This document shows, piece by piece, positions 1 to 64,000 of a DNA stretch of 64,000 nt (position 1 is the first letter of the stretch; every line of letters starts with the position of its first letter). The notes beneath the pieces were generated by a model. That model ran no database searches. It was not told the origin of the DNA and worked only from the letters and a program-made list of their open reading frames with translations. Origin of the DNA: Psammoneis japonica (Eukaryota); NCBI GenBank assembly GCA_008632985.1, contig QPGO01000179.1, positions 62,001 to 126,000 on the forward strand, given 5' to 3'. The position numbers and the translations under genes are program-made.

Positions 1-1192
1 CAAATGTGTTTCGCCAAACCATGCACGCACTTGCACAGCACACACCTTGGTCCACCAAGGGCCCTTTGGAGCCATGTGCAACAACACCTGCTCCATCCAG
101 ACGACCGCAGACCGCAACAAACAAAAGGGGCAAGACATGCAATGGCATGTTCGAGTCCATTTTATGATGGCAATTGTTGGTCAATCATGACACAAGTCAG
201 CGCAGTTGATGCCATTGATTGAATGTCATCTGCATCATAAAAGACAAGGTGAGATGTGGCAGCTCATGTGCAGAACACTTGTGCAACAGATCGGTTGTCA
301 TGGAAGCACTGTTCTTGTGTCGTTTCATCACAAGCGCGGATCACAAAAGGCAGCAAGAGTGGTGTCTGGGGCAAAAGTGGAGCCTCACATGGCCAACAAA
401 AATGTGGCAGATTGAATGTTCATGTTGTTTCCTCCCTTTGTTGCATCTCATGTGAAGAGTGCTGCAATCGCATTGTCATGCTTTTGTTGTGTGGTCACAA
501 ATGCATGCCGCAAGGCATCTGTCGCAAAGGCTGAGGCCACAGCAGAGCCGCACAGCACCAATGTTGACATGGAGAATTCAGTGGAAAAATTCATTCCTCC
601 TCATTCTTCCAGAAGGGGCCACATTGCGTTGATGTGTCGATGCATCATCATCGTGCACAAGGGACAATGTGTCAGCCAAGACCACAGGCTCACGCCAGTT
701 GCATGCTGTGGGTGTTCATTTTTGTGAGTCGTGACGTGTCGTGGCATGATGTGTCATGTGGTGTCTTGTCATGTCGTGTCATGTGCGACAAATTTTGTCA
801 TGTGTGCGACAAATTTTGTTGTTCAAATTTTGTGGCAGAGAAAGTTTTTGCGATGACAAAGATTGCCAAATTTTGTCAAATGCAGCACTCAGTGAAAGGA
901 CATCACCAAAGCACATGTTGTGCATGAATGACATCAAACATTTTGTCGCTGAATTTTACAATGTTTTTGTTGCATTTGTCGCAAACAATTTCAGTTTGTC
1001 ACAATTGCATCTTTTCAAGACAAAACATTGATCCATTTGAGAAAATGTTGCCAAGTGCGACAAAATGCCATGTGTCCCTGATGCACAATCAGGGTGCACA
1101 ATCAGCGCTGAGTTGGCTGAGGGAGCTCATGACGACACACGTCCCATGAGGACTTGCATGCCAACAAAAAAACCAATTGAATGTTCACACTT

Positions 1193-1584
1193 GATGCACT
1201 CCAGGTCCAGGTGGGACCTGGCACTGCTGAGCTGTGACCTCAACAGTTTTTTGAATCGTGCTGCATGTTGCGCATGTGGATTTCTACGTGACTTTGGCAA
1301 CGTTTTGCTTCATTTTGTGGCACACTTGTCGAGCAATCTGCCCAACAACTTTTGACATTTTTTGTTGCAGCACCACTCTGTGATGTCTCAAGAATTGCAC
1401 GGGGCAGGCAAATTTGCAAAAAGGTCAAGTGGCAAGAGGCACAATTGTGCCACAAACTTGGCCACTCATTTGATGTTGAAGATGAACACATCCATTGATT
1501 AAATTCTTGCACTGTGGAGCTCATGTGCAGAATTCTGTGGGCCCAATGTCACGTGGAGTCCCACCTGCGGGGCTGGAACGTGTC
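1193..1584 (+). mobile_element. ~390-bp MITE, copy A (heavily TpA-converted)
   Basis: Colinear with 10033-10421; degenerate TIRs gatgcactccaggtccaggtgggac / gtcccacctgcggggctggaacgtgtc; flanks actt/actc; only 2 TA left. Confidence 0.9.
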
Positions 1585-2129
1585 ACTCCAGACACCTGTG
1601 AAAGCACATCCACTCAAGTGTTTTGTGCGCAAATGCTGCACACACAAGAGACACATGATTTGCGCTCAAAATTGATTGTTGTTTTGTGCATCACCTGGGG
1701 CTGGAACATGTCTTGGGCATGAAACGAGATGGGCTCATGGGGGTGATTCTCTCCACAACATCTGTGCAAAGATTGGTGCACAGTCTGCACCCGGCTCCCT
1801 TTTCACTGGGGTTTTGCTGCAGGCTGCCAGGGTTGGGGTTGGGGTCAGGGTTGGGGCTTGAGCGGACTGAAGAATTTGCCATGTGTGCAATCAAAAACAG
1901 TTTTGTGTGCTTTGGCATTGGCGACAGAGCATTGCATCAACCATGGCCCCCGGTGCTTGGTCTCACTTCTGGAGTTGGCAGCACAATGTCACAACCTTTC
2001 TTTTGGTCTTTCCCTGGTGCACACAACTGCAGGGTTGTTTGTTGCCTTTGACAAGGATGGAAAAAGCAAAGTGCAAAAGGCTGCCAACAGCGTGGAGCAA
2101 ATTCCTTGAAATGGCAAAGACTCCATGAC

Positions 2130-3960
2130 AAAGAGAGAAAGTCACTTTTCAACTGCAGTGCTGGATTGATTTCATTCAGTCTGCAAAATGATTGCCAAGA
2201 CAAGAAATTGACAGCCGTGTGCATGAAGAAACTTTGCGCGCAGGCACCACACCCGGATTTGTTTCATTCAAGGGCTGTTGCTGAGACAAGAAATTGACAG
2301 CGATGCACATGCAAACAAATTGCAGCCAGGCATCACATGTGCGCACCATTGTGCTCCATTTGTGCACCAACACATTTGACAAGAGCTGCAACATCTGGGC
2401 CGCATGCCCTTGTTGATGTGACCAAATGTTTCGAGCCATTGCTGTTTGTCGCTGCTGAGAGTTTGGGGTCTGAAAAGCAATGTGGCTCAATCTTCTTTCT
2501 GTTCAACCCCAAAAAAATTGGTTTGAACCCAGTCAGCTGCATTTCCTGTTGGCTCTGGTTCTAGACAGCTCAGAGCAGGTGGAAACGTGACTTCAGAGGA
2601 CAACAGAGGTGCCGGCTTTGACTGCTCTTCATTCACTTCTGACACCCATGGAGAAAGTGCATCATGGAGTGGGGGTGCTTTGGCCTCCAGCTTTGCTGAC
2701 TCTTGTGCCACCGCAAATGGAGCACCCAGCAGCTTTGGTGTTTCTTGCTCCAAATCTTGGACTTGAGAAGACTTGTGCTGTTTGACCAACACAGACGCAG
2801 CTGCTGCCAGTTCCAAATGTTTTTGCTCTGAGCTCTGAAGCATCTGGGATTCTGGGTGACAAAGCTTGCGGCTCTGATGGCTTTTCTGCTGCCAGTTTTG
2901 CCAACTCTTGTGCCACCACAAATGAAGCACAACCTGGTTTCAACAGCCCTTTTTCTGAATCTTGGACTTGAAAATGTTCCAACTTTTTCACAAAAGCTGA
3001 CAGAGCTGCCAGTTTTGATGGCTCCTCCTTGCCAAACTTGCAGTCACACCCCAGGTGTGGATGGTTTCTCAGAGGCCCTTGCACAGTGGGTTCTTGATCA
3101 AGTTTTGTTGGGCACAACTGCTGAGAACTCTTTGTCTTGGGAGAGACATTGATGGCATGTGACAATTTGAATCTCTTGCCAAACAAGAGCACACAGCAGT
3201 TGACATGGCTGCAGATGAACCGAGAGTGGCGGCATCAGAGTTGGGTCAAATCACTGGTGCTGTTGAGTGGAAGATGTCCTCAATGTGCTTTTTGTGGATT
3301 TCTGTGTTGGAAAGCAATCACCTGCAAGTCCAGAGAAATTCCACTGGTGGAAAGGTCCAAACCATGAATCCCTCCATTGCAAGCAGGGTCTCTTTGTTGA
3401 TGGCCAGCACAAAAAATGACAGTTGCATTGGGCGCTTGTTGGGATTGTTGCTGGAGCATTTACAAGCACACAGACGGAGAGATTTTTGTGCCACAAAATC
3501 AAGCCAAAAGACTGCCAACAACACATTCCTGGCACAATGCTTGAGACTTGTTGACAAAAAGAAGGTCAGTTTTCAATTGCGGCACAGATTGATTTCATTT
3601 GATGCACAGAGAAGGGCAATTGCCATGACAAGAAATCAACAATGTGCAGGAAGGCACCACATCCAGAGGACCATCGCTGCAACAAATAATTGACAGCAAC
3701 AAGTGCAAAGAAAGCACACACCGTCAGCCACACACCAGTGCACTCAACAAGAGAGTCAACATCCGGACCACACTCTTCTTGATGTGACCAAACATTTTCA
3801 AACCTTTGCACTGCAGAAATGTTGTTGTTTGCAATGTCCAAGACAGCTGCCACTGAGAGCTTGGGGTGTGAAGAGCACTTTGACTCAACCTTTTTTCTCT
3901 TTGGCCTTGAAAGAATCAGTTTGAACGTTGTCAGCTGCATGTCCTTCTGGATCTGGTTTC
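2130..3960. repeat. Diverged internal duplication (~2130-2560 resembles ~3565-3960)
   Basis: Shared ordered blocks: ttttcaa..gattgatttcatt, aattgacagc, tgatgtgaccaaa, ctgagag.ttggggt.tgaa, gtttgaac..gtcagctgcat. Confidence 0.55.
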
Positions 3961-6186
3961 ACTGACTCTTGCGCTGCAACAAACAGAGCACCATCTAGTT
4001 TCAACATTTCATGCTCCAAACCTTGGACTTGAGAAGATTTGGACTCGTTTGCCGATGCTGACAGAGCTGCTGCCAGTTTTGGTGTTGCTTCTTCTGAAGC
4101 ATTTGGGGCTTCTCTTGGTGACACAGCCACCGGCTTTGATGGCTCCTTCCAGCCAAACTTGCAGTTGCACCCTTGATGCATCATCAATGTGAACAGCTTT
4201 GTTGGAGGTTTCAAAAACGCTTCCACAGCTGGGACGGAAAAAGCCTGTGGATGCAACAACAGCATGGAAAAGCATTGGCAACATCATTGGCAGCATTTGG
4301 GGGAGAAATCACAGCAGAACTCACATTTCCAATCAAGTGCTTGGCACAATCATTCGCATGGAACCAAACAACATTGGTTTTGCCCTTTGTGGGTGGCGCC
4401 AACTTGAGTGTGACAAAGGACGAGTCATTGAGAGGGTTGCATCTGTGACAATCAATGACACAAAGGTTGTGACATTTCCCTTTGAAAGTGTGGCACTTTG
4501 CATCCAACTCAGCCCTCCACTGGGGGCCTTTGAAGATCTGATGGAGGATGCCAAACAAAACTTTGACTGAGCTGCATTGAAAGATTCAATTGTTTCAAAC
4601 AAGTCTCAAGTGAGATGGCATGGTGTCATCAAACCAGCTAAAAAACTAACCTGGCCCTTCAACATGGGTTTCTGGGAAACCCATGAACTTTTCTTGCTCC
4701 GCCAGCACAGTCAGGGCCCTTCAATGGTGTCGTCCAGTTTGGTCTTTCTGCTTTTTTAAAATGTGCATCCAGAGGGTGTCTGGATCATCAATTTGCACGT
4801 GAGATGCCATCATGCAATTGCACTTGACAACAGTTTCCTTGCACACAATCTGGGCTGGCAAACAGAGCCCTTCTTCCAGACAGCACTCTCAGGTCCCTGG
4901 AGTGGAAAAACAAATGGAACAATCATTTGTGAGTCCACTGAAAGCACAGCAAACAAAAACATGCGACAATCTCAACTCTTTCACTCACCACTTCACTTGC
5001 TGCAGATGCACAGTGGAGATTCTCACATGGGAGGTTTGTCCAAAAGCTCCGATTTCTCCTGGCAGGAGACACGCACATGGAATCAAACTCAACTGGATCA
5101 AAGCATGTGAATCCAAAGGCTTGGCCAATTGCTTCTTGGTCGTCCTTCCCAGTGATGACAATGTTTTCAGCCAGATGCTTGGCTGAATGCATCACAGTTG
5201 CATTGTCAAAGTCTTCAAAAATGTTCATCTGGTCAATGCCATTGATCAAATGGGTTTGACAATGTGACAACGACGTTGGATTTGTCGATGTGTGCTCATG
5301 CCAGGCGAGACAGTGAGAGCTGGCTGCGCCGGCAAGAAAGTTGAGTGAGACAACAAGTGGCGAGCCTTGGATGCACTGATGATGCCATTTTGATTTTCAA
5401 CTCACTTGCCTTTTAATGAACTTGGACCTTAAATCAGTGGGTGCCGAAAATCCGGCAAATGGTGAGTTGATGCGTCGTCTGCATGCAACGTGGTGTCACA
5501 ACAAAGCAAAACGGTGTGTTTCAACATTTCTTGCCAAACTGCACGTCTCCAAATGGATGATTGCAGTGGTGCGTTGATGAGGGTCCAAAGGAGCTTCTGT
5601 TGCAATGGTCCAAAAAATGACGAATGTTTGGACACCTCATCTGCCGCGCCAATGTCATCGTCGGCTCCGGCGGTTTTTTGACAACAAGTTCTCCTGTCCG
5701 TGCCATGTTGTCACTGCGGCGATGGTCTGTGCGCTCATCCGGATCGCGCCTGGGTCACACGGCAGTGCTGGGATCACCTTTCACCAGGTGGAAGGTCCTG
5801 TTGTTTCACATGTCCAAACATCCAATGTCCAATGTGTCTTTTGATTTTTGCCAAATTGTCATCTCACAAACATGGCATCAAACCCTACGATGTAAAACGT
5901 CAAATCTCCCTGTGTGTTGATTGTCAAGACTCAAATTGTCAATGATGTGCGATGCAATGCACTGGCTGTGCGGCATGGCATTTTTGATGCTGAGTGTGTT
6001 CTCTGGTTTCTCCTGAGAGCAGTCCACTGGTCGGAGGCAGACCAGCGTAAAGTGTCATGGGCTGTCTCCGGAACAAATGTGACGATGGAAGGAAAGCGAT
6101 TCATGACATTGTGCATCGGCAGCACGGTCCCGTCACTCACCTCTGCCACTCTTGCAACGGACTGACAAAATGTTGCCACAGCAGCA

Positions 6187-7875
6187 GTGAGTTGCTGGGT
6201 TTCGAGGGCAAAACCCTCCGCAACAGGAGTGCACCGCGGTTCCTGCTGGCAACATCTCGTGCCTCGAGTCTCCGCAGCGCCACACTGCCATCCGCAATTC
6301 TCTCCTCTGCCTGCCCCGCCACTTGTGCACTGTCCCCCCCTGGCATGGGTGGAGACATCCAAACAGCTTCCACGGCCCAAGAAGAGAAAACCCCGTGGGA
6401 AGAAAAAATCCTTCGGAGAACTGCACAAAAAGCTGGAACAGTTTGCAGCTCATCACAGACACTGCCAGGTTCCCAGAGAAGGCGCGGAGGACCCCGAATT
6501 GGCGCGGTGGGACACTGCTCTCAGGAACAAGAGCTTCAAAATTAACAGCAACCAATGCAAGCAGCTAAAGAGTCTTGGATTTGCCTTTGAAAACGCAAAG
6601 CTCGAAACAGATTTCGCAAAGTGGGACACTCGTTTTGAGCAGCTCAGACAATTTAAGGCCTCACATGGCCACCCACACATCACCACTGAGTGGGACCAGG
6701 ACCAACAGTTGACAAATTGGGTCTGCAATCAGAAGGCGGCGCTCAAGAGAAACGAATTGGGTGACCAACGACTGTGGGCACTGCAACAGATTGGATTGTT
6801 GCCATGGCCGTGGGAAGAGGGCAAAGGTGGTGCACTCCCACCAACAGGTCCCAGTGCGCAAATTCCTGAGGGAAGAAGCGGGAACCACAAGCTCACTTCG
6901 ACTCTGGTTGAAGAGCTTTCAGAAGAACTGACAAGTGCAGTTTGCGAGTTGCGCTTTGTGCACAACAAAAGAAAGGACAACTCATTCTGTCCATTCAAAA
7001 CAGCAGACCAACTCAGGGACCACATCAAAAAAGAAGTGGATGATCAGTTTCAAGATCTCTGCAAGAAACTGCACAACACACCGCACACCATGAAATTGCA
7101 CGACATTCCTGCAACAGAGTTTGTTTTGTTGGACACTTCTGCCTTTCAAGAGGACTGTGATTTTTTGGACCCCTCCAATCCTGTTGCCAGGGCCATCTCC
7201 TCCTTTCACAATGAATTAAAAACATGCAAAAGAAATGTCAAGTTGGCTGGACTGAACATGGAACAGATGAGTGCCAATGCAAGCGATGTGTTTCGTGCGA
7301 CATTGGAGCGTGGCTGCCATGGCAAAGAGTGTGACATGGATGACAAGCCAATTCACCAATTCTGCCCTGCCTTCCGATCAACTCAACGAGTGGGTGCTCT
7401 TTTGCTGCAATCGCTGTTGAGCAAAAGTGGAGAGTCCACAGAACTGTTGAGAGATGGAGGCTTGCATTGCTGCAAGCACAACTTGTTTGTCACTCACTCG
7501 GAGAGTTTGCAGGGTGCACACCGTGACAGCAAAGGAATCCCGGGGCCATGGACAGCAGATTTCCCATTGCAGAAAGGAGGAATGAAGCTCAGTCTCTGGC
7601 ACAATTGTGACAAGGAATGCAAGTTTAGCAGCAAACGAGAGCCACCACCAGAAAATGAGGCTGTCGTGTTGGAAATCCCACTGAAGTTCGTTGGGTTCTG
7701 GAGCTCGGCGCAGGTTCATGGCGGTGGTCACGACAGCAGGCTTGGCAACGGTGCTCCTCGGATCCAGCTCTGTTTGCCCTTGACAAAGAGTCAGTGTGGT
7801 TCAATCTTCGGGGACACAACAGGGACCATCTTTGGTGAACGACGAGTTTGCTGTTGCAACTTTGATGGCAGCTGA
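6187..7875 (+). pseudogene. Helicase-associated (HA) domain protein with a possible C-terminal 2OG-Fe(II)-like domain, TpA-converted
   Basis: Two HA-like repeats (KLEQFAAHHRHCQVP..LARW..LKSLGF; WDTRFEQLRQFKASHGH..LTNWVCNQK..LQQIG); later HRD...VHGGG...R; no Tyr in 562 aa. Confidence 0.6.
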
Positions 7876-8126
7876 CACCACAGTCTTAAACACCAGTCGA
7901 GATGCAGTCCTACAACGTGGCATTCACAGGGCGGACAAGACGTTGGAGGTTGGCAGCAACATGAACAGCAACACAGCAAACAGACGCTTGATGAAAGTCG
8001 TTGTCTAAAAATTATGATGAAAGGTCGTTGTTGTGTTTTGAATCCGATTTGTGCACTTGGGCAGTGCGCAGGACCTTGTCAATGAGACCAGGTTGAGCGA
8101 GCAGAAATCAACCCTTGGAAAGCTTT

Positions 8127-8340
8127 TCAGATCTTGACATCAAGAAAGTTGCCAACTTCTCCTTTGTCTCTCAATTCAAATGAGTGGCAATGCTTGTTCT
8201 TGGAGACTCCCAGCTTGCAAATCTCCTCCTCCAGAGCTTCAGCTGATGCACCAGCAAATGCCGTGTTGTCAATGTGCAGGACACACATCATGCCTTCCTT
8301 GAAGTGCAGGCATGGGTCCATGGCTGACACAATGCATGCA
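8127..8340 (-). mobile_element. Ty1/Copia (CoDi-like) reverse transcriptase fragment
   Basis: DPCLHFKEGMMCVLHIDNTAFAG...FELRDKGEVGNFLDVKI matches the Copia DPCLF..YVDD..GE..FLG motif, with Y->H. Confidence 0.75.
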
Positions 8341-8399
8341 ACGGAGGCGGGCATCATCCTCAATCAAGAGTGCATTTGTGGAAGAGTCGCGAGCCAAAG

Positions 8400-9200
8400 C
8401 AAGACCAAGCGGTTGTCTTGCAACTGCCACGTGCCCTCTCACCTTTCTGATGATCCCCTCCGTGCTTGCCAATTCTCGCTGTTGCTGCATTGGGTCTGGA
8501 TCCCAAGGATGACAACAGCCATTGGCACCAGAGCATGTTGAAAGCATTTCCCAGAAGCAAATGACTGTGTGCTCCAAAAATGTTCAGGAAAGTGTTTGGA
8601 CAGCACGCAGTGGACAATGCTTGCTTTCCACTTGACATGGGCGACAACCCACACAGTGCATTTGGTGCAGCCATTGCTGACACACAATGCATGTGTTGGA
8701 AGTGGGTTCCCTCAAATGATGGAGGTGACAGTTGGAGAGATGTCTGCCAAACAGAAAGAAGAATGTGACCGGATTGCATCGGAGTTGTTCCGCACAGCCC
8801 GGTGTCATCCAGGTCAGAGATGTGACTGTCCGCGAATTCGAGCCAACTGGGGAATTTCCACACTTGGTCAACTTGCATGTGATGAGATGGGCAAGCTTCT
8901 TGCACTTGCCATCATTGGTCGCACACCTGCTGGCAGAAATCTGCTGGAAAAGAGGTGCAATCCATCCTTTGACAGCAAAAAGAAAAAAACTGCTGACGGC
9001 TTCAAAGGAAAGAAGCAACAAGAAGAGCAGTTGGCCAAATCATCAGAGAGTGAACCCAAGGAAGAGGACCCTGATTTTGTTGAACCATCCAATGAACAGA
9101 CAGGTGAAACACACACCACCCCTGTTGATGAGAATGTGCCTGACATGCACTGCCCAAAAGAGACATGGTCTGATGTCCCCTGCGATCCATCCGACTGCCA
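8400..9200 (+). mobile_element. Degenerate DNA-transposon-like coding remnant (possibly Plavaka-like)
   Basis: Frameshifted pieces HAVDNACFPLDMGDNPHSAFGA and CPRIRANWGISTLGQL..GKLLAL; family assignment is tentative. Confidence 0.3.
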
Positions 9201-9289
9201 CCTCACTTTGCAATGGCTCCCTGGCCCAGCCCATCAAGGTGCGTGCCTTGTCTGAGTCTTCAATCATTTCCATGTGCTTTGATCTGCAT

Positions 9290-11500: not shown

Positions 11501-11759
11501 CACCAACAACTTTTCCTGATTCGCGCGTTGCAGATGAGCATCATCCTGTGCGCAAAACTGCTCTGACAGTTGCTGCATTCATGCCTGGCACTCCCTGCTT
11601 TGCTCATCTTGCTGTTGCTGAGTGGAGGGGGGTTCTGGGTTGTCTGCGCCATTTGGATCCCCATGATTTGAACCGGTTGTCGTTGGTGTTGACATCCCAA
11701 GCGTTGTCACATTGGCTTTGTCATTGTCACGGCAGCACCAACGGACATCGGCGATTGAT

Positions 11760-12045
11760 CGGCATGTGATGACCGAAACTTTTGTGCCAGTGTTTTCCTC
11801 CACACCTGAAGATGTTTCTTTTGTTTCCATCAACAGACATGTCAAACATTCGTGTCTTGATGTGATGACCAAAACTTTTGTGGAAGTGTTTTCCTCCACA
11901 CCTGAAGATGTTTCTTTTGTTTCCATCAACAGACATGTCAAACATTCGTGTCTCAATGTGATGACCAAAACTTTTGCGCCAGTGTTTTTCTCCACACCTG
12001 AAGATTTTTCTTTTGTTTCCATCAACAGACACGCCAAACATTCAC
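11760..12045. repeat. 96-bp tandem repeat, ~3 units
   Basis: The unit atgtgatgaccaaaacttttgtgccagtgttttcctccacacctgaagat... recurs at about 11764, 11860 and 11956. Confidence 0.9.
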
Positions 12046-55200: not shown

Positions 55201-55817
55201 GTTTTGGTGCAGGGGTCTGCGCAGTGGTGCAGCGTGTGTGTGGGGAGGTTGGTGGATGGAAGGCGGGGGAAGAGGGTGGTGGCTGGCTGGCAATGCGGTG
55301 TGTGTGAGTTGTGGGCATGGTGGTGCGCAGGTGATGGGGTGTGGGGTGTTCGTGCAGGGTGTTGGTGTGTGGATTTTTTGTGCAGGGTGTTGGTGTGTGG
55401 ATTTGCGTGATGGAGTGTGGATTTGCATGAGTGGTGAGTGTCGCAGCATGCAGTGGGGCAATCTTCTTTTGACATGTCACAAGGGCCATTGCATGAGCTC
55501 CCAGCCCCCCTCACAACTCTCACACAAGTCGACAAAGGAGCAGCAAAAACCATTGCAGTTCACTGTCATTTCTTTCCAGCATCTTGTCAATGGTCAAGAT
55601 CCATGCTTCTGCAGCCCCACATGTTGTGCTGCAGCAGAGTCATTTAACACATCAGGAGGGCAATTTTGCACATGGTCCCAACCCTGTCACAACTCTCACA
55701 TGTTGATGCCACATGTGTCCTGCATTGCAATGTACAAACTGACATCACAACCTGGATGACCTGCACCAACCTGCTGCGCTGCTGCAACAGATCTTGGCAC
55801 TTGGTCACTCACTTCGC

Positions 55818-55873
55818 TCACTCACTCACTCACTCACTCACTCACTCACTCACTCACTCACTCACTCACTCAC
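55818..55873. repeat. (CACT)n microsatellite, ~14 units
   Basis: Direct reading of the sequence. Confidence 0.95.
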
Positions 55874-56308
55874 CAACTGACTCACTTGCTTGCCAACTTG
55901 CTCTCAAAAGCAAAACACTTTCATGTCACTTGCCCAGGGTGGTCAGTGAAACATGTGACAAAGGATTCAACTTGCAGTGCAGACTGAAGATGCAGAATCA
56001 TCAGACTTTCCTCCAGGTGGTCCCTGGTGTGAAACTCACGCAGGTGTTGAGTGATGCATTGGAGAATTTGTGGTGCCATGCATTGCGCGTTGCTGGCATG
56101 GTGAGTGGGGAGAACAAGGCAGTGTTGGGAAAATTTGCAAACCTGATGGCTGACAGATGTGGCAAGAATTTGGTGAGAATCTCCGCGGCACTGCAACACT
56201 GTGACTTGACTGATTGCTGTCAGACAAGATGATGACTGCAACTGTGACTGTTCACCGCAGCCTGCACTGTTTCTTTGAAATGACTTTGACTGCGACTTTA
56301 GTTGCCCC

Positions 56309-56698
56309 GACGCGTTCCAGGTCCAGGTGGGACCTCGCACTGCTGAACCCTGTGACATCGACAGTTTTGTGAATCACGTCGTATGTCGCACACGTAGATT
56401 TCTACGTGATTTTTTCGACATTTTGTGTCATTTTACGGCACACTTGTTGAGCGATCCGTCCAACATTTTTTGACATTTTTTGTTACAGCGCAATTCTACA
56501 ATGTCTTAAGAATCGCGTGGGGCAGGCGCATTTGCAAAAATGTCAAGTGGCGATGGGCACAATTGCACCACAAACTTGGCCGTTCATTTGACATTGACTG
56601 CAAATGTGTCCATTGATTAAATTCTCGCACTGCGGAGCTCGCACGTAGAATTCTGCGGGCCCAATGTCACACACGGAGTCCCACCCAGGACTGGAACC
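56309..56698 (+). mobile_element. MITE copy D (partly converted); right TIR split by the Gypsy insertion and completed at 62360-62368
   Basis: gacgcgttccaggtccaggtgggac...gtcccacccaggactggaacc|Gypsy|gaacccgtc; TSD CCCC/CCCC; about 9 TA left. Confidence 0.92.
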
Positions 56699-56885
56699 TG
56701 CAAGATCCAGCTTGAGATGACTTGACAAAAGTTGTGGGAGAACCAAGAAGAGACCCGATCAGCACAATCGCTGATCAGAGAACTGACTTCCAATGGCTTC
56801 CTGAATGTCTGGTGCGTCAGTCAACACACACATCATGTCAGAGAGGGCACACTTGGTCATAAAGTGCATGCGCCCATCTCATTCA
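56699..56885 (-). repeat. 3' LTR
   Basis: Direct repeat of 62176-62359; adjacent to the PPT. Confidence 0.95.
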
Positions 56886-56992
56886 CTCTTCCCCTCCATG
56901 GTGCAAGGAACACGCACACCATTGGAACCACTTGACTAAAATTCAAACCCAATGCGCACGGAGAAGGGAACCCAGACATTGGGAAGAAACCC

Positions 56993-59900
56993 TCAACTCC
57001 GATGCGGCACCATGCGGCGAATGTTAATTTGCTCAATGACGTGTGGTGCTCGCAGTGCTGAAACAGTCCCGTTGGCGTGGACTTGTGAAATTCGAAACGG
57101 GCCACAGGCTTGTTCTTCCAACTTTGAAGGATCCACCGACTTGACCAATGCATCTTGACCAACCAGATGATCGCAGGAGTGGCGCTTCGCATTCTGGCGT
57201 CGCAGATTCTCGTCGACCAATGCTTGTTGGTTGGCTTGCATTGCAGCAAGGCCGGAGATGACTGGTGAGTCCAAAATCACATCACCAGAGCTCCACTTGA
57301 AACACCCACAGACCTTGAGTGGGAGCATCGCAAAGCACAAGAGGCTGTGGCAAGGGTGTCGTCCACAATCTGCTCAGCCTGTTGAACATTTAAAGGTGGG
57401 TTGGCGACAACCACAGTGCGCATGATGTTGGCTGTTGTCTGGTGCATTCGTTCACAAATGGAGTTGGCTGCAGGATTTCAAGACGTTGTTGGCGCATCAG
57501 CAACACCTGCTTGATTTGGTGGCATTTGGAACTCCCAACCAATGAATTCTCCACCATTGTCATGGATGCATCGATTCGGTCTGGGACAACGAGCTGGCCA
57601 AAGGTTGCGAAACTTGTCAGTCACATGCTGAGAAGTTTTGTTGTAAGTGCGCACGAGTTCAGTCAATCCAGTGACAGTGTCAATGCAAGTGAGAGCGCTG
57701 AATTCAATCTCTTGGTCTTGAATCGGCATTTTCCACGGTCCAATGAGATCAGCCACTGCTTCTGTCCATGGAGCCAAAGGTGCTTGACGTTGAGGCAATT
57801 CTCCACATCCAGGACCCAGTTGTTTAAATCGTTGACATGCATCGCAAACAAATTTGTTGCAACGTCGACGCAATGCAGGATGACACACATGAGTCCGAAT
57901 GCTTTCATGCAATCGCACGACTCCACAATGGCCCAATGCGCGATGGTGCCATGCAATGGCATCTGGCAACAACGCAGCAGGAATGCAAATTTTCCAGGCT
58001 CCAGGCGGATCATTCAGATGCAAACGATGACAAATCAGGGGGCGACGATTCACAATCTCAGCCACGAACTGCTGCGGATTTTGTTGTCTTTGCTGGCTCA
58101 GTTGAAGATCTTCGAACTGGAGCTGTTGTGTCCTCAGTGTCTCAGCAGGATTTGGCATTTCATCCAGCGTTGGGCAATTCAAAAAGCACTCAAACAGTTC
58201 AGGCTCATCAAGCAGAGAGAAAAAGGAGGTGTGAGACTCATCAGAAGGATCAACCGGAGCACGGCAACACTTGAACCTGCAAGCACCCAACTCCAAATCG
58301 TCCTCTTCCTCGGCTTTGTTCAGTTCCTTGGAATCCAACTTTTTAAAATGAATGATTTTTCCTTTGCATTTGCTGCTTGGCCCAAGGCTCTTCCCCTTCG
58401 AAGGCGGATCCATGTGCGGGAGTCAAGAAAAACAATCGGTGAGCACGCTGTCCTTGCCTTCAACATGCTTAAAGGCAGGCACGAAATCTTCGAGGAACAG
58501 TCGCCAATGAAGGACGCGCTGCATGTTCAAAGTGCGAAAGGTGAGATTTTTGTGATCAGCATGAACAGTGACATCAGCACCAAGCAACATGGAGCAAAAT
58601 TCCTTGAAGCACATGACGATGGCCAGGAGTTCTTTTTCCATTGTTGAGCAATTTCGTTGAGCCGCCGAGAGCTTCTTAGACCAATGCGCCACAGGTTTGC
58701 CATCTTGAACAATGGCGGCGCCCATCTGGCAGTCTGATGCATCGGTGCAGACATGGAATGGCAGGTTGTGGTTAGGATGGGCCATCAATGCTTCTGCCGC
58801 AATTGCTGCCTTCATCTCCTTGAGTGCTTTCTGGCATGATTCTGTCCATTGGAACTGACTCTTGCCTGTCAATTCAGTCAGAGGTGCAAGCAGGTGAGAA
58901 CAGCGAGGCCACACAGTGCGACAACAGGTCACTGCACTGAGAAATGACCGGAGCTGAGCAGTGTCCCGCGGAGGTTGCATTCGCAGGATCGCCTTGACCT
59001 TCTTTTTCCACGGTTCAATTCCAGTTGGAGTGAGCCAATGCCCTGGAAAATTGGTTTCTTGAACACACCACTCGCATTTCAACGGGTTGACTTTCAAGCC
59101 ATTCTCCTCAAGATGATGCAACACCTTGTCAAGACAAGAGAGATGGCAATCAAAGTCAGCATCAAATGCGCCAACATCATCAATGTGAGTTTCAACATCC
59201 AAACCATGTGGGATCTTTTCAATGATGGACTGAGCAATGTCTGGAGCTGGCTTCAATCCCACAGCCATGCGACAATGCTGGAACTTCCTGCACGGAGTTG
59301 CAATCGTAGCGAGCTCCTTGCTTTCATCGTCCAATTCCAAATTGCCACAGAACATCATGAGATCTAATTTTGTGAAGAACTTGCAGCCCACTCTCCACTG
59401 CAGCACATCTTGAACAACTGGCAGAGGATGCACTTTTCGTTTAAGGACCTTGTTGAGCTCTCAAAAATCGGACACCCATCGCACTCGGCCGTCCTTCTTC
59501 GGAGTGACAAAGGCACCGGCTGCCCATTCCGCAGGCCCACATGGTCGAAGTGCACCGAGATTCACCAAATGCTTCAATTCCTTTTTGAATGATTCTTCAT
59601 TGACTCGAGCAACAGGAAACGGTTTTGAGTGATGTGGAACAGCATTTTCATCCACTTCGAGGTGCACCTTTTCATGAGGACAGTGCCCCAAAGTTCCGTC
59701 AAACAAGGTTGAATGTTTTTCCAATGCCGCCAACAGCTTCTTCGTTTGCTCCTCCATGAGATGATCCAAGTTCCGAACCACTTCTGCTGGATCCGTTGCT
59801 TCGTGCTTGGCGTCGAGCACATGGTTGTCATGTCCATCATCGCATCCACAGTCCAACTCGTCTTCACAATCTTCATCAAATTCATCTATTCGACCTAAAG

Positions 59901-60462
59901 CCACGTGCCAATTGCAGGATTTGGACCAATGACGAGGTTCCTTCATTGGGATCACACGGTCCAGCCATCGCAGTGTCCTTGTTTCACAGTTCAGGTTGAG
60001 ACCAATCTTGTCCAAGAAATCTCGACCCAAAATGATGTCATGCACACACGGAGCATCAAATGCATGAGCCACACAGCTGTCAATCCTCCTGGCTTTGTCA
60101 AATTCCGGCAACACGATGTTGCTCAAGGCTGCCCAATGACCTGATTGGAAAGGACCTGCCACAGTTTGAAAAGCTTGGACTCCATGTTCGTCAACAGATG
60201 GCGCGGCTCTTCGAGGCAAATCTTGGGACAAAATCACAGTGTGAGAACCACCCGAATCAAACAAAACACGCATCACACGATTTGACTCATGCCGTTGCAT
60301 TGATTTTGCAACAAGCAGTGCAGATGGAACCAGTGCAGTGCGCGAGACTTGCGAACTCATTTTTGGGAGAGGAATGTTGCATTTGAGTGCATCTTGATCA
60401 AACACATCCCCCTCTTCATTCACGCAATTTTCTGCAGTGTTTTCAAATTCAACAGGTGACAA
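56993..60462 (-). pseudogene. pol: Gypsy pol (protease, RT, RNase H, integrase)
   Basis: LFDSGGSH; ETHIDD; CTDASDCQMGA; EKELLA; DHKNL; ADLIGPW; HDNGGEFIG; three in-frame TGA stops (59461, 58423, 57478) at expected Arg (CGA) positions. Confidence 0.93.
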
Positions 60463-60638
60463 TTCATCAGGATTTTCAAAACAATCAAAAGCAAAACATT
60501 CATCATTTCATTCAGGCAAAACACAATCATTTCCTTCAACAAATGCTTCTCTCACAGGCAGTTGGGAGTGCTCAGCTCCGGAGCATTCAGCTCCTTCTTC
60601 TCAGAACTGCCAAGGAAACTGCCCATCTGGCTGAAACC

Positions 60639-61871
60639 TCACCACACCTCCACAACGTGGAGGGGGCCTCGTCCGATCACATCGAAATGGTGCACATCAC
60701 CACGAGGAGCTTCTTGAGCCTGGTTGTCATTGTTCACATTGTCTGCTTGAGCAGCACATCCGTCGGCCTGTCCTTGGCCTCCACGGTTGTTGTTTTCATT
60801 GCGACAATGTTGACCACCACCTTGGTTGCCATTGTCACTTTGATTTCCGTTGTTGTTGTTGTTGCGATGGGCACCACGACCTCCTTGGTTCTGGTTGCCA
60901 TGACCACCAAAGCATCCACCGCCTCCACGGCCTTGGCCACGGACTCCTTGGAAACGACCTCCGCCTCGACCTCCACCGCCATGGCCTCCTCCTCGACCGC
61001 CACGGTTTTGAGGCCCATGATGGTTGGGGTTGTTTGGATTGTCATGACATTGGCCCCACGTGTGCCTTCCATGGTGCCATGGGACCGGACATGGATCACC
61101 TGCCTTCAGTTGGCCCTTGCCATCCTTCTTGTCACGGTTCCCCTTTTCATCACTGGAGCTCCCTCCATTGCCATTGCTGGACTTGCGCTTCTTGTCATCT
61201 TGACCATCGGCAAACACCTTCTTGTTGCTCATGCAGGCTTGGACATCCACCACAGAATCCGCAACAAGGTTCTTGCCCGCACGAATGCAGGGCTGCTGCC
61301 AGGTCAAAGGGAAGGCACAAAAGATGATGTTCTTCTGCTCCTGCTCTGCAAGTGCAGGAACGGCACCAGGCAGATGGTTGGCACAACGAAACAACGTCTC
61401 CATGCGATCAATGTGAGTTTCAGATTCCGCTGAGTGAGGCTTTTTGCAAGCAGGCAAATGCATCTTCATCGTGTCACGAGCTGTCGGTTTCACGCAGCGC
61501 AGATGACAGGATGAGATGGCCTGATCAAATTGAGCTGCCATCCGTTGGTTCTGTGGAATGCCCGCGGCAATGTTCTGCCATTTTGCCTCCGCAGTTCCTT
61601 GGAGACAATCCTCGAAAGCATCAAACAACTCTGTTCCGGCATCATAATTCAGCTGTCTTGCCACCTTCCGGAACCTGTCCTCCACGTGCAACAATGATTC
61701 AATTCCATGCTCTCCTGTGAAAATGGGACACATTTTTGAAAGTTTAGCACCATCAATGAAGGTTTGAGTGAGCTTCACTTCCTGTGGCTCAGAATCCACG
61801 AATTTGGTTTTACACTCAATGCATGCTTTCTCCAAGGCTTCTTGACACATGGCGATGCACAATTTCAGCAA
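60639..61871 (-). pseudogene. gag: Gypsy gag-like ORF
   Basis: Upstream of pol; CPVPWHHGRHTWGQC knuckle-like motif; Gly/Asn/Arg-rich tail. Confidence 0.75.
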
Positions 61872-62175
61872 TCAAACAATCAACAATCCACAAGACAAAC
61901 GAAATGAAATGTTCCCAATTGATCCACACCATGAGAACAATCAACAACCAAACAACAACAAATTCAAGAACAGCAATGCGAGACTCGAGGTCGAACAAAC
62001 GCTGCTCCGAATCGCCAATTTCACGAGCACAATTGCGCTGTGGTTCTGATTGACTTCAAATGAAATTTTCTGCATGAGCTCGCAAACAAATTTTCTCTCT
62101 TCTCGACAACACTCTTTGCGTTGTCACAAAGTTGACAATGCAGTGAACAAGCCATGACAACGACTGTGATTACAG

Positions 62176-62359
62176 TGCAAGATCTGGCTTGAGATGACTT
62201 GACAAATGTTGTGGGAGAACCAAGAAGAGACCCAATCAGCGCAATCGCTGATCGGGGAACTGACTTCTGATGGCTTCCTGAATGTCTGATGCGTCAGTCA
62301 ACACACACACATCAGAGAGGGCACACTTGGTCACAAAGCACATGTGCCTGTCTCATTCA
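62176..62359 (-). repeat. 5' LTR
   Basis: Direct repeat of 56699-56885. Confidence 0.95.
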
Positions 62360-62869
62360 GAACCCGTCCCCCATGAAATGACTTGTTGGTTGACTGTCAA
62401 TGACTGTCAACATGACTGATGACTGCTTCAACTCACACACAATTGTTCTTGGAGCAAGCTTGCAGAATTTTGCAAAAAAAACACCGGCGTCTTTGATCTT
62501 CCATCAATGCATCAGGATGACAAATTGGTTCGAAAGTCAATGTTTTAGTTGTCAGCCTCAATTGATGAAGAACAAGCACTGCTCAAATTGGGTGCAGTGC
62601 ATCTGTGTTCAAAAAGAAGATTGGTGCTGCAATTTTTGTGACACCTGCATTGAAAGAAGATTGACATCATCACAGCTTTTGTTTGAGAGCCATGGCTGTG
62701 CATCACAAGGCTGTTCATGCACAGCTGTTGCCAGAGCAGTTGCTTGACACCACAAAAAGGGCATGACAAGAGCCCCCAAGCTGACAGGGAAAGATTTCGG
62801 TGAGTGCACCAACCAAATCAAAAATCCTCCACAGCCAAAGGAGACCATGAAGACACTTGCAAGGCTCTG

Positions 62870-63200
62870 CCCTGGCTCAGCTGTGGCTCCATGTCACAGC
62901 TGAGCCAGGGTCAGAGTGAGCCTTAAACTCCCAAATTCTGCTGCAGAAGGACACTGTGAATGCCCCCACCAGCCAAACAACTGCTGTCAAAAGGCGCTGA
63001 CTTTCTTTGGTGGACCCCAGACAACATTTGAAGAAAGCCACCCTGGCTCAGCTGTGGCTCCATGCCACAGCTGAGCCAGGGTCAGGGCGAGCCTTGAATT
63101 CCCAAATTCTGCTGCAGAAGGACACCATGGATGCCCCCACCAACAAAGCAGCTGCTGTCAAAAGGCATTTGGTGCCTTTGGCAGATCCCAGGCAACACTT
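62870..63200. repeat. 171-bp tandem duplication, each unit starting with a GC-rich hairpin
   Basis: ccctggctcagctgtggc-tccat-gccacagctgagccaggg at 63041-63081, with a one-mismatch copy at 62870-62910. Confidence 0.85.
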
Positions 63201-63518
63201 TAAATGAGAAACATGGTTGGGAGTTGAAATGCTGCCCTCACTTGGCTGTGGCTCCATGTCACTTCACACCACTGTTGAAGGGTGAGCCAATGTGTTCCAG
63301 CTGCACGCGAACCGCACATGAACCAAAATGTGCACAAAAACAACATTTGTGCAATTTTTGCGTGGTCTCTGACTTGCAAACAAGCTTTCACCACCAAAAG
63401 CACAGATTTGTTTAAATTTTGGCATTTTTTGTCATTGTTTTGGTGCAGTCAATTTTTTTTTCATTGCAGAGGGCTGGCTGCATGGATGACAACAACAAAC
63501 AAGAGAGCATCGCTCCAA

Positions 63519-63863
63519 GACGCGTTCCAGGTCTAGGTGGGGCCTCGCACTGCTGAACTGTGACATCGACAGTTTTTTGAATCGCGTCGCATGTCGCGCA
63601 CGCACATTTCTACGTGATTTTGGCGAAATTTTGCATCATTTTGTGGTGCAATTGTCAGGCGATCCATTCAACAACTTTTGACATTTTTTTCTTCTGCACC
63701 ATTCTCGAGTGTCTTGAGAACGGCGCAGGGCAGGCGCATTGTCCAAAACTGCAAGTGCAAACAGAGACTCATGTGCTGCAAACTTGGCCGTTCATTTTGT
63801 GTCGAAGACAAACATGTCCATTGACCAGAGTGCAAAAAGTCCCACCTGGGGCTGGAACCCATC
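63519..63863 (+). mobile_element. MITE copy E (internally shortened)
   Basis: gacgcgttccaggtctaggtggg...gtcccacctggggctggaacccatc; TSD CCAA/CCAA; 2 TA left. Confidence 0.9.
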
Positions 63864-64000
63864 CCAAAACCAAATGCAAAAATTGGGAGGACCCACAAAA
63901 GAAGGCACCTGTTTGTGAGACGGCATTCCCCTCCCCTTTGTCACTTCACCTTTTGTGTGCATTCGTCTTCTCACACATCCACATTTTGTCCTGTTGTTTC

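Follow-up and report, generated by a model that had tools for sequence, protein, structure and literature searches.

Nearly two thirds of the 64-kb stretch of diatom DNA analysed here (the window) has lost almost all of its TA dinucleotides. The probable explanation, held with some confidence, is a post-integration hypermutation at TpA of the same kind as that reported for Bigelowiella natans (bioRxiv 10.64898/2026.01.13.699255), most likely caused by a TadA/ADAT-like deaminase targeted to silenced elements.

Across the whole window there are 1219 TA, an observed/expected ratio (o/e) of 0.29; the ratios for CA, TG and CG are 1.52, 1.48 and 0.62. Based on a two-state HMM applied to TA positions, the window was divided into TA-poor DNA and the remainder, referred to as normal. 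The TA-poor DNA totals 38,943 bp (61% of the window) in three blocks and contains 144 TA (o/e 0.06; CG 0.43, CA 1.72, TG 1.73), versus 1072 TA in 25,057 bp of normal DNA (o/e 0.65; CG 0.93, CA 1.17, TG 1.13). The Fisher odds ratio for this comparison is 0.083 (p = 8e-283), and 200 mononucleotide shuffles of the TA-poor DNA gave 2558 +/- 41 TA, with a minimum of 2465. The preliminary description, which had placed about 39 kb of nearly TA-free DNA in three domains beside gene islands of normal TA content, was thus confirmed. The edges of the spared islands are sharp, each boundary being step-like, with 1 TA on the TA-poor side and at least 10 on the normal side within 300 bp. The segments are as follows.

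1-10047 (no strand): TA-poor block 1a; 27 TA, o/e 0.041; CG o/e 0.39; CA and TG 1.76
10048-10428 (no strand): normal 381-bp island inside TA-poor DNA (HMM); TA o/e 0.96, CG o/e 1.59
10429-13566 (no strand): TA-poor block 1b; 9 TA, o/e 0.040; 96-bp tandem repeats at 11764-13002 (TRF)
13567-17560 (no strand): spared gene island; TA o/e 0.67, CG 1.03
15035-15143 (minus strand): TPP riboswitch 3' of ThiC; Rfam RF00059, 59.8 bits
15341-16564 (minus strand): ThiC, in the spared island; Pfam E 7e-156
17561-27772 (no strand): TA-poor block 2; 37 TA, o/e 0.054
27773-48454 (no strand): spared gene island; TA o/e 0.64, CG 0.91; contains near-identical tandem repeats at 30662-34010
48455-64000 (no strand): TA-poor block 3; 71 TA, o/e 0.072

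The content of the TA-poor DNA was investigated by Pfam searches and by comparison of repeat copies. The recognisable components are restricted to a Gypsy element, a Crypton-like remnant, MITEs and one helicase-associated (HA) open frame, the rest being without a Pfam domain.

1194-1586 (plus strand): MITE copy c1k, heavily converted
6166-7872 (plus strand): HA open frame in TA-poor DNA, 569 codons; Pfam PF03457, E 1.6e-20
10033-10421 (plus strand): MITE copy c10k, unmutated, nested in TA-poor DNA; terminal inverted repeats of ~25 bp; 31 TA
27102-27498 (inverted): MITE relic in block 2, detected after YR recoding
50175-50786 (plus strand): Crypton-like tyrosine-recombinase remnant; NDC10_II, Pfam PF16787, E 1.1e-10; Tyr 0.0%
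56309-56698 (plus strand): MITE copy c56k, partly converted, with the Gypsy inserted 4 bp before its end
56699-62359 (minus strand): Gypsy LTR retrotransposon; LTRs 56699-56885 and 62176-62359; 5-bp target-site duplication GAACC
57478-60507 (minus strand): Gypsy pol frame, 1010 codons, 2 internal in-frame stops
63516-63827 (plus strand): MITE copy c63k, converted; 17 of 26 aligned TA sites are CA or TG and 2 are still TA

No protein domain was recognised by the Pfam search of ORFs in block 2. Copia and hAT-like elements, which the preliminary description had listed among those affected, gave no Pfam match among TA-poor ORFs of at least 60 aa up to 25.8 kb and ORFs of at least 110 aa elsewhere; its Gypsy, Crypton and MITE assignments stood. 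Since about two thirds of the TA-poor DNA is without a recognisable TE domain, the proposed restriction to transposons is shown in part only, namely for the Gypsy, the Crypton-like remnant and the MITEs. The HA frame lacks Tyr altogether (0.0%; His 4.9%, Cys 4.2%), and its summed depth in the public run X1 (58-116) is consistent with a single copy.

The Gypsy element contains 19 TA in 5,661 bp, against an expectation of about 265 by our own estimate at o/e 0.75; the earlier figure, counted by eye, was 15-20. Its pol frame encodes protease, RT, RNase H and integrase zinc finger domains (Pfam RVP, RVT_1, RT_RNaseH and Integrase_H2C2), with one Tyr in total, and the RT motif YxDD reads HIDD. None of 25 conserved Tyr columns (Tyr in at least 60% of 40 homologues) has kept its residue; they now hold 11 His, 11 Cys, 2 Phe and 1 Gly. 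Other residues were largely kept (Trp 15/15, Leu 59/66, Lys 36/40). Six database Gypsy proteins (NCBI, ENA and JGI records) are likewise without Tyr, with His or Cys at the conserved Tyr columns; the signature is not confined to the 64-kb window.

The MITE copies gave the same direction of change as the Tyr columns, TA to CA or TG, and both bear out the direction originally proposed from Tyr residues now read as His or Cys. Relative to the unmutated copy c10k, c1k is changed at 29 of 31 TA sites (26 to CA or TG; 2 kept), versus 25 of 263 positions that are neither TpA nor CpG; at its 26 CpG sites there are 13 C>T and 8 G>A changes. In c56k, 22 of the 31 TA sites (71%) are changed and 9 kept, with changes at 18 of the 263 other positions. 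The summed X1 depth of c10k is ~122,000, and this MITE family must therefore be very abundant. Conversion is uneven within a block, being 0% in c10k and 71% in c56k, and nested neighbours differ in degree. The remaining end of c56k lies past the Gypsy (62365-62368). The MITE is older than the element nested in it, yet less completely converted.

Both DNA strands were affected, as had been suggested, and about equally. The TA-poor DNA contains 4297 CA and 4094 TG, and the equal numbers of His and Cys in the Gypsy pol frame reveal no coding-strand bias. Runs of CA or TG along one strand were looked for in the TA-poor DNA and none was found (sd of z 1.35, lag-1 autocorrelation -0.11). The two Gypsy LTRs are 89.8% identical (96.3% after YR recoding) and differ as CA versus TG at 5 sites and as TA versus CA at 1, and DNA transposons (the MITEs and the Crypton-like element) are affected as well; mutation therefore took place at the DNA level, after integration.

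The order of conversion by context was TAC/TAT > TAG > TAA. Taking gene-island composition as the ancestral baseline, per-strand survival was 0.85 for TAA, 0.29 for TAG, 0.13 for TAC and 0.064 for TAT, and a four-parameter model in which the strands multiply reproduced all 16 xTAy counts; the two strands of each TA were changed independently. The position at +2 also matters (TACC 0.008 and TACT 0.004 versus TACA 0.086 and TACG 0.077). TTAA survives because TAA is the slowest context, and makes up 54 of 144 surviving TA in TA-poor DNA versus 45 of 1041 in the gene islands. The protection of TAA is probably overstated, since only 3 of the 31 TA in c10k lie in TTAA; in the mutated copies 6 of 9 TTAA sites are converted. 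Among 58 directly inferred events in which the 3' neighbours of the two A's differ, the base after the changed A was C over G in 13:2, C over T in 8:0, T over G in 8:2, C over A in 5:1, T over A in 11:6 and G over A in 1:1. These events are few, and common ancestry of the MITE copies is possible.

Decay of 5-methylcytosine (CpG to TpG or CpA) occupies the same blocks, as the CG ratios indicate, and leaves the same products, but takes CpG and not TpA. By mass balance, calculated from both-strand tetranucleotide counts with the gene islands as baseline, a TA loss of 2991 and a CG loss of 2295 stand against a CA plus TG gain of 5568, and CpG decay accounts for ~43% of the excess. The two processes are separable in c56k, which has just 4 changes at its 26 CpG sites. 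TA conversion is much faster than CpG decay.

The comparison with fungal RIP made in the preliminary description ("reverse-RIP") holds in so far as both are in situ, dinucleotide-specific transition hypermutations of TE DNA that leave skewed blocks beside normal genes. The direction is opposite (CpA>TpA in RIP, TpA>CpA/TpG here), RIP makes stop codons, which the TpA process cannot, and the kilobase-scale strand runs of RIP are absent from the TA-poor DNA. RIP is triggered by duplication. Here the analogy fails on the trigger, because three tandem 1.09-kb copies in the gene island (30662-34010), 99.2-99.5% identical, have normal TA, whereas the mutated DNA includes sequence that is single-copy in X1.

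TA is self-complementary, so that an A>G change at 5'-TAY is formally equivalent to a T>C change at 5'-RTA read from the opposite strand. It is therefore conceivable, if rather unlikely, that thymine is the mutated base: a TET/JBP-type dioxygenase or other T-modifier would mark 5'-RTA-3' in silenced elements, and 5hmU, oxidised to 5fU or a derivative, would give T>C by mispairing with G or by faulty repair. The loss of TA would then record an epigenetic mark in the way that CpG loss records 5mC. This fits all the results equally, and the low CG of the same blocks indicates that they are epigenetically marked; 5fU mispairs with G, and dinoflagellate 5hmU favours TpA. Against it, the enzyme and the modified base are both hypothetical here, and the disparity between TA and CpG changes in c56k is hard to square with passive decay of a mark. 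The bursts in only some lines described in the B. natans preprint also look like a switched-on enzyme (bioRxiv 10.64898/2026.01.13.699255).

If N6-methyladenine or a different adenine modification sat at heterochromatic TA and decayed slowly and passively, with no role in defence, the effect would be domain-restricted, strand-symmetric and co-located with CpG decay, as observed. We consider this route improbable: the Gypsy is near-saturated though its LTRs are 96.3% identical outside YR steps, an unmutated MITE lies within a block, nested neighbours are unequally converted, and known eukaryotic 6mA is found at ApT, not TpA.

ADAR-like A-to-I editing of TE dsRNA, fixed by reverse transcription, would suit the retroelements among the targets and the 5' U favoured by ADARs (review table, PMC10661471), but the CA-versus-TG differences between LTRs of one insertion, the effect on MITEs, the Crypton-like element and non-coding DNA, and a 3' preference for C/T over the G of ADARs (PMC10661471) make it very improbable, as are GC-biased conversion and selection against TA, from which neither TA-confined change nor step-like boundaries are expected.

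A sequencing or assembly artefact, in which a modified base at TA was miscalled and the real DNA is TA, has a similarly slight probability. Long-read platforms can miscall modified bases systematically, and X1, whose platform is not on record, is the sole run containing the stretch and may be the source sample of the assembly. However, X1 contigs (k-mer depth ~55-68 or 110-116) match the TA-poor DNA at 2742-3308, 3285-3932, 4317-5239, 5655-7008 and 7037-7972 with 0-2 differences over 567-1354 bp, and the sequence is therefore no long-read base-calling artefact. A 389-bp MITE of normal TA content with very sharp edges lies within a TA-poor block, and Gypsy proteins without Tyr occur in NCBI, ENA and JGI records. 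According to the preprint, Illumina-sequenced B. natans lines gain the same signature de novo (bioRxiv 10.64898/2026.01.13.699255).

The leading guess for the causal enzyme remains a TadA/ADAT-like DNA adenine deaminase. In tRNA, U33 directly precedes the edited A34. A review table gives the motif of TadA/ADAT2 as 5'-ACG and that of ADAR as 5'-UAG (PMC10661471), so that C follows the edited A as in the TAC preference seen here; the tRNA motif UACG differs from the preferred TACY in having G, not a pyrimidine, at +2. TadA/ADAT2 and the adenine base editors derived from it deaminate A, and the resulting I is read as G, but their natural substrates are tRNA anticodon loops. We know of no natural member of this family established as a chromatin-targeted DNA mutator. 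APOBEC3 and ADAR resemble the proposed enzyme as deaminases that restrict mobile elements with a short context preference, ADAR too favouring a 5' U. APOBEC changes C>U during reverse transcription and ADAR acts on dsRNA with a preferred 3' G, whereas here A:T>G:C changes lie on both strands of integrated DNA, DNA transposons included.

The preliminary description knew of no described system with this signature; one is reported in B. natans, where two viral inserts took 231 of 302 de novo mutations; almost all of these were A>G or T>C changes, and every such change lay at TpA (bioRxiv 10.64898/2026.01.13.699255). As described in that preprint, the mutations came in bursts in some lines only, gave TpG or CpA by strand, were regionally limited to foreign or silent DNA that could be single-copy, and left, as a long-term footprint, clusters poor in TpA and rich in CpA+TpG, in which RT and DDE domains are enriched. 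On this comparison the diatom process would be of the same kind and far more extensive. The hosts differ (a chlorarachniophyte of the Rhizaria; here a diatom, Stramenopila), as do the targets (integrated NCLDV/virophage DNA; here LTR, Crypton-like and MITE elements) and the depletion (o/e 0.45 in an NCLDV insert; here a near-saturated 0.04-0.07). De novo occurrence was demonstrated in B. natans, whereas here the process is read from static sequence. Because the window is diatom DNA, the diatom case is new. Strand independence, the context order and the unequal conversion of nested neighbours are also new here; the 3'-context rule, strand independence and LTR-based proof of post-integration action are absent from the main text of the preprint.

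In the proposed mechanism, TEs and adjoining silent DNA would be struck after integration by DNA-level hypermutation, the A of 5'-TA-3' and its partner T being replaced by G:C on either strand independently, so that each TA would become TG or CA. The rate would be set by the bases 3' of the A, fastest at TAC/TAT, especially with a pyrimidine at +2, slower at TAG and slowest at TAA, and would far exceed that of CpG decay, reaching near-saturation in some elements. The most likely chemistry is conversion of adenine to hypoxanthine by a candidate TadA/ADAT-like polynucleotide deaminase, which may be directed to certain silenced, CpG-methylated elements and not to repeats per se. TAA and TAG stops and TA-rich signals would be erased, all Tyr codons would come to read His or Cys, and stop codons would never be created. 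These losses would disable TE proteins, as in the RT motif HIDD. A genome defence that erases TpA is rare, having been reported so far in one 2026 preprint only, from an unrelated alga.

Over the whole window the observed/expected (o/e) ratio of TA was 0.29, and those of CA and TG were approximately 1.5. Based on a two-state segmentation on TA positions, the sequence was divided into TA-poor and normal DNA.

Composition of the two classes of segment (o/e ratios)
TA-poor: 1-10047, 10429-13566, 17561-27772 and 48455-64000; 38,943 bp; 144 TA (o/e 0.06), CG 0.43, CA 1.72, TG 1.73
Normal: 13567-17560, 27773-48454 and the island 10048-10428; 25,057 bp; 1,072 TA (o/e 0.65), CG 0.93, CA 1.17, TG 1.13

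The contrast in TA is far above chance (Fisher p ~1e-282), and in 200 shuffles of the TA-poor DNA the TA count never fell below 2,465, as against 144 observed. The G+C content of the TA-poor and normal classes was equal (0.488 and 0.486). The depletion of TpA, together with the excess of CpA+TpG, forms discrete clusters in the four TA-poor segments, and their edges are steps: within 300 bp of every boundary there was one TA on the TA-poor side and at least 10 on the normal side. These figures agree with the preliminary description, which had reported about 39 kb with almost no TA, normal TA in gene islands and, by eye, 15-20 TA in a 5.7-kb Gypsy element; 19 were counted in its 5,661 bp. Relative to the gene-island baseline, and counting both strands, CA+TG had gained 5,568 while TA and CG had lost 2,991 and 2,295, respectively. 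Since the gain equals the sum of the two losses to within approximately 5%, CA and TG had two sources, namely TA conversion and ordinary CpG decay.

The following genes and elements were identified:

1194-1586, 27102-27498, 56309-56698 and 63516-63827, four converted MITE copies, TA-poor
6166-7872, HA-domain frame, TA-poor
10033-10421, unmutated MITE reference copy, ~390 bp, terminal inverted repeats of ~25 bp, 31 TA
13487-14568, plus strand, methyltransferase-like frames (weak matches), spared island
15035-15143, minus strand, TPP riboswitch aptamer 3' of the ThiC coding frame (RF00059, 59.8 bits)
15341-16564, minus strand, ThiC, spared island
30662-34010, tandem 1.09-kb unit in three copies, 99.2-99.5% identical, gene island, not hypermutated
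36468-36947, plus strand, 2OG-Fe(II) oxygenase frame (PF03171, E 6e-9), spared island
50175-50786, Crypton-like remnant (NDC10_II), TA-poor
56699-56885 and 62176-62359, LTRs of the Gypsy element, TA-poor, 5-bp target-site duplication GAACC
57478-60507, minus strand, Gypsy pol frame, 1,010 codons, two internal in-frame stops

Besides ThiC, the methyltransferase-like frames and the 2OG-Fe(II) oxygenase frame, the normal islands carry an LRR protein. Diatom ThiC (Nitzschia, Thalassiosira, Cyclotella, Phaeodactylum and others) and the ThiC frame share 88-93% identity, and a TPP riboswitch 3' of ThiC is an arrangement known in diatoms and plants. The window comes from a diatom, none of the named hits being identical to it. 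A contig over ThiC from the public sequencing run X2 had 23 other letters in place of the 150 bp between stop codon and riboswitch (15158-15309) and was ~2% different elsewhere; it may represent another allele, another strain or a processed form. Nothing in the window evidence links the oxygenase or methyltransferase-like frames to hypermutation. The repeats at 30662-34010 have a G+C content of 0.575 and a strong GC skew (+0.26 to +0.33), with minus-strand frames of 350-651 aa showing no Pfam domain.

Stop-free ORFs were scanned against Pfam; for the 257 TA-poor ORFs of 60-109 aa the scan ran through the first 150, reaching 25.8 kb. No transposon domain other than Gypsy, NDC10_II and HA was found in the scanned TA-poor ORFs, and approximately two thirds of the TA-poor DNA had no Pfam match or recognizable domain. 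The Copia and hAT-like elements which the preliminary description had listed as affected were not recovered, neither domain being detected by Pfam in these ORFs. Self-BLAST of the window after YR recoding, in which every pyrimidine-purine step is written as one symbol, revealed no additional repeat families. A motif composed of a T-run, TTAATTAA and an A-run occurs four times near the Crypton-like remnant (48821-48829, 48862-48870, 50168-50176 and 51897-51905); several TTAA sites that survive lie within it, and it may be a marker of element ends. The family of the reference MITE had a summed depth of ~122,000 in the public run X1, against ~110 for single-copy DNA, and is very abundant, probably with a thousand or more copies in the genome, the majority of them apparently unmutated.

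The direction of change was determined from the Gypsy pol frame and the MITE copies. The pol frame contains a single Tyr in 1,010 codons, compared with 3.46% Tyr in 40 homologues, with His and Cys raised, and its RT motif now reads HIDD. Tyr is shared by 60% or more of the 40 homologues at 25 columns; the pol frame kept it at none of these and instead had His at 11, Cys at 11, Phe at 2 and Gly at 1. With 22 of the 25 reading His or Cys, the earlier proposal that such replacements fix the direction was borne out. Other conserved residues were mostly retained (Trp 15/15, Leu 59/66, Lys 36/40). Changes of Ile, Val and Leu were also seen, for example seven Val>Ala and four Leu>Pro.

MITE copies scored against the unmutated copy at 10033-10421 (31 TA, 26 CpG sites)
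1194-1586: 29 of 31 TA sites changed (26 to CA or TG, 2 to CG, 1 to AA); 2 TA kept
56309-56698: 22 of 31 TA sites changed (20 to CA or TG); 9 TA kept
63516-63827: 24 of 26 aligned TA sites changed (17 to CA or TG); 2 TA kept

Base changes at the TA sites of the first copy were 15 A>G, 15 T>C and 1 T>A; at its 26 CpG sites there were 13 C>T and 8 G>A. The second copy showed four changes at 26 CpG sites. Positions outside TpA and CpG changed at 25/263 and 18/263, respectively, against 29/31 and 22/31 at TA. The enrichment at TpA, whose absence the preliminary description had named as grounds for rejecting the idea, is therefore evident in these copies. The change, from TA to CA or TG, shows specificity for TpA, runs far ahead of CpG decay in speed and constitutes a process separate from it. 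Tandem-repeat columns in the TA-poor DNA fitted TA or CG ancestry alike.

That the signature is a modified-base miscall in the long-read assembly is very unlikely. Contigs from X1, a run whose platform is not recorded and which possibly derives from the same sample as the assembly, were compared over 1-20000; X1 contained 74% of the words sampled from 8001-18000. Five stretches of TA-poor sequence within 2742-7972 were reproduced by these contigs with 0-2 differences across 567-1,354 bp, and clean contigs at a k-mer depth of 54-68 imply accurate reads. A miscall is also at odds with the 389-bp MITE of normal TA content embedded in a TA-poor block, with the presence of Tyr-less Gypsy proteins in NCBI, ENA and JGI records, and with the like mutations reported, in the accessible part of a preprint, from Illumina-sequenced lines of another alga, Bigelowiella natans (bioRxiv 10.64898/2026.01.13.699255). 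The sequence feature is real. The k-mer depth of X1 was 54-68 over the 2742-7972 contigs versus ~110-116 over ThiC (15309-16140) and 19203-20000; the half depth over part of the first TA-poor block suggests a diploid genome in which this transposon-bearing stretch is present, or identical, in one haplotype only.

Conversion occurs in DNA after integration. The two Gypsy LTRs differ as CA versus TG at five sites and as TA versus CA at one; as the LTRs of an element are the same when it inserts, each must have been converted on its own afterwards. YR recoding raised the LTR identity from 89.8% to 96.3% and the identity in two MITE comparisons, from 87.7% to 95.6% in one and from 79.7% to 92.9% in the other, showing that most of the divergence is of the pyrimidine-purine kind. 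The targets include DNA transposons (MITEs and the Crypton-like element) as well as non-coding DNA, and on the Gypsy coding strand Tyr codons became His and Cys equally often. Together, the LTR differences, these targets and the equality of the strands exclude RNA editing of the ADAR type fixed by retrotransposition, at least for these sites. Strand-processive action was likewise ruled out, as there were no kilobase runs of one outcome, CA or TG (sd of z 1.35, lag-1 autocorrelation -0.11).

The survival of TA in its 16 xTAy contexts was reproduced by four numbers, on the basis that the A's of the two strands are independent targets and that the base 3' of each A determines how fast it is hit. 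Taking gene-island composition as the ancestral state, per-strand survival was 0.85 for TAA, 0.29 for TAG, 0.13 for TAC and 0.064 for TAT, and observed and modelled counts were 108 and 103 for TTAA, 26 and 27 for CTAA, and 0 and 0.9 for ATAT. TTAA made up 54 of the 144 surviving TA sites in TA-poor DNA, compared with 45 of 1,041 in the pair of large gene islands. TTAA is commoner in the unmutated MITE, and in the mutated copies TTAA was converted at 6 of 9 sites; TAA is therefore slow rather than immune. A pyrimidine at +2 added approximately ten-fold (TACC 0.008 and TACT 0.004 versus TACA 0.086 and TACG 0.077). Protection of TACG by CpG methylation was ruled out, since TACA survives equally.

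Survival alone could reflect either the base 3' of A or the base 5' of T, and the product data decide for the former. Tyr codons, MITE copies and LTRs together gave 96 direct events, which are few and partly non-independent; for 58 of these the A on one strand and the A on the other were followed by different bases.

Preference for the hit A by its 3' neighbour (direct events)
C over G, 13:2
C over T, 8:0
T over G, 8:2
C over A, 5:1
T over A, 11:6
G over A, 1:1

The alternative, in which the base 5' of T governs the context, was rejected, as it predicts the opposite product for ATAA/TTAT and GTAA/TTAC and the opposite strand choice in direct events. The pair CTAA/TTAG was contrary in the composition estimate, though CpG loss dominates there. 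The strands are hit independently, and the rate depends on 3' context. The main text of the B. natans preprint gives no sequence context beyond TpA for comparison with this rule.

With respect to targeting, the Gypsy element, the Crypton-like element, MITEs and the HA-domain frame were hit, while ThiC and the other gene islands were spared. The preliminary description had called the system a "reverse-RIP"; the reversed direction (TA to CA or TG) was upheld, but a RIP-like repeat trigger was not. The tandem 1.09-kb copies, 99.2-99.5% identical, keep a TA o/e of 0.64-0.74, whereas converted TA-poor DNA at 2002-4669, 6004-7337, 10673-13340 and 17343-20000, the HA-domain frame included, has single-copy-like X1 depth. 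Duplication as such is not the trigger. Nor are the blocks uniform, as one MITE (10033-10421) inside TA-poor DNA is untouched. The MITE at 56309-56698 is 71% converted, yet it is older than the Gypsy element, which inserted in its terminal repeat and keeps 19 TA versus ~265 expected at an o/e of 0.75 by our estimate. Such unequal conversion of nested neighbours points to an element-specific history or targeting. From the sequences themselves, this intermediate copy and the unmutated copy may be hints of present-day de novo mutation. Diatom transposons carry CpG methylation, and the CpG depletion suggests that the TA-poor blocks are methylated.

The conversion can make no stop codon and removes TAA and TAG. 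Per kb of strand, TAA and TAG numbered 2.14 and 0.77 in TA-poor DNA versus 9.04 and 10.54 in normal DNA, with TGA reaching 25.3 in the former. With TAA and TAG nearly gone, the TA-poor DNA is crowded with long meaningless frames, those of at least 100 aa from stop to stop numbering 3.72 per kb against 2.00 in gene islands. Long overlapping frames lacking relatives and domains occupy all six frames, for example at 8086-9879, 23570-24904 and 51026-51903. No database relative was found for frame 23570-24235 among proteins of 122-389 aa, and look-ups with frames 9046-9879 and 54953-55756 yielded no usable relative; all three are probably artefacts of stop-codon loss. Proteins are predicted to be inactivated by replacement of Tyr, including that of the RT YxDD motif, and the catalytic tyrosines of recombinases are presumably replaced likewise. 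Gene callers will turn such frames into spurious proteins, and Tyr-less "proteins" are already in public databases. Converted copies also diverge fast and escape standard repeat finders; the MITE comparison at 79.7% identity, for example, rises to 92.9% after YR recoding.

Similar proteins were identified in database searches. Among the matches listed for the RT-RNase H frame, two of 120 relatives (P0228 and P0196) were nearly without Tyr. P0228 kept none of 21 conserved Tyr columns (10 His, 7 Cys) and P0196 kept 3 of 19 (9 Cys, 5 His). Among the best 150 cluster representatives, four, P0228 included, had less than 0.5% Tyr, the next being at 1.97%. His or Cys at conserved Tyr columns was also found in P0253, P0379 and P0255 and in two members of the P0253 cluster (P0392 and P0393), compared with retention of 13/19 and 16/18 in two control proteins. 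The Tyr-poor proteins came from NCBI, ENA and JGI/IMG, and some may be from the same genome as the window. None of 31 metagenome Gypsy loci fetched with P0196 was TA-depleted (o/e 0.48-0.98); they serve as a control only, showing that low TA is no inherent property of the Gypsy lineage.

The preliminary description knew of no system with this signature, a statement superseded by the B. natans preprint (bioRxiv 10.64898/2026.01.13.699255), whose accessible text describes such a process. In the lines studied there, 231 of 302 new mutations fell in integrated giant-virus and virophage regions; nearly all of these were A>G or T>C, all such changes lay at TpA, and rates were ~6e-7 per site per generation, in some lines only. 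The same text reports 124 TpA-poor, CpA+TpG-rich clusters and an enrichment of RT and DDE domains in genes poor in TpA, and proposes as a hypothesis that the agent is an ADAT2-like adenine deaminase (the B. natans ADAT2 homologue). A literature search on TpA loss in diatom transposons returned this preprint alone, and diatoms are absent from its accessible text. As far as that text goes, the two cases share near-exclusive A>G/T>C transitions, confinement to TpA, and clusters of TpA depletion with CpA/TpG excess; the window differs in belonging to another eukaryotic supergroup, in having transposons as targets and in its near-saturation. What the window shows is a further example of a process described only lately and does not amount to a new category of system. 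Fungal RIP converts C:G to T:A and enriches TpA, the opposite direction; it is triggered by duplication, for any repeat longer than a few hundred bp, and makes stop codons, unlike the process seen here. RIP also requires a cytosine methyltransferase of the RID/DIM-2 type and operates before meiosis. APOBEC and ADAR editing, as described in the accessible part of PMC10661471, differ in chemistry, substrate and context.

The evidence very strongly indicates that a directed hypermutation of TpA is real, and the process in the window is likely to be of the same kind as that in B. natans. The most likely chemistry would be deamination of adenine by a TadA/ADAT-like deaminase acting on DNA, one base being attacked per event, although we give adenine deamination about an even chance of being correct; thymine-directed chemistry at RTA is formally equivalent. 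An agent of the TadA/ADAT type would be expected to act on an A with T/U before it and C after it. The 5' T proved obligatory and, among direct events, 3' C came first; at +2, however, a pyrimidine is preferred and not G. The T-A-C preference offers a lead. It may be recruited to particular silenced elements. Taken as a whole, a directed post-integration TpA hypermutation of the B. natans kind, probably by adenine deamination, is favoured to a reasonable degree. More tentatively, and with the balance rather against it, an old SAR-wide defence could be common to diatoms and chlorarachniophytes, in which small RNAs or chromatin marks would direct a natural 5'-TAY DNA adenine deaminase to single invading elements. 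Such a defence would be the first A-to-G DNA "base editor" found in nature as an immune system; it would disable invaders through the loss of tyrosines, stop codons and TA-rich signals and not by making stops.

The near-saturated diatom blocks add to the mutation-accumulation study a preference of TAY over TAG over TAA with a +2 pyrimidine, and they also show strand independence, post-integration action and element-by-element differences in targeting. These features of context, strand and targeting constrain the search for the enzyme, possibly a natural DNA adenine deaminase of value in base editing. If the same process operates in a diatom and a rhizarian alga, TpA hypermutation is not the curiosity of one species, and it would stand beside fungal RIP and vertebrate APOBEC as a widespread eukaryotic means of killing mobile DNA.
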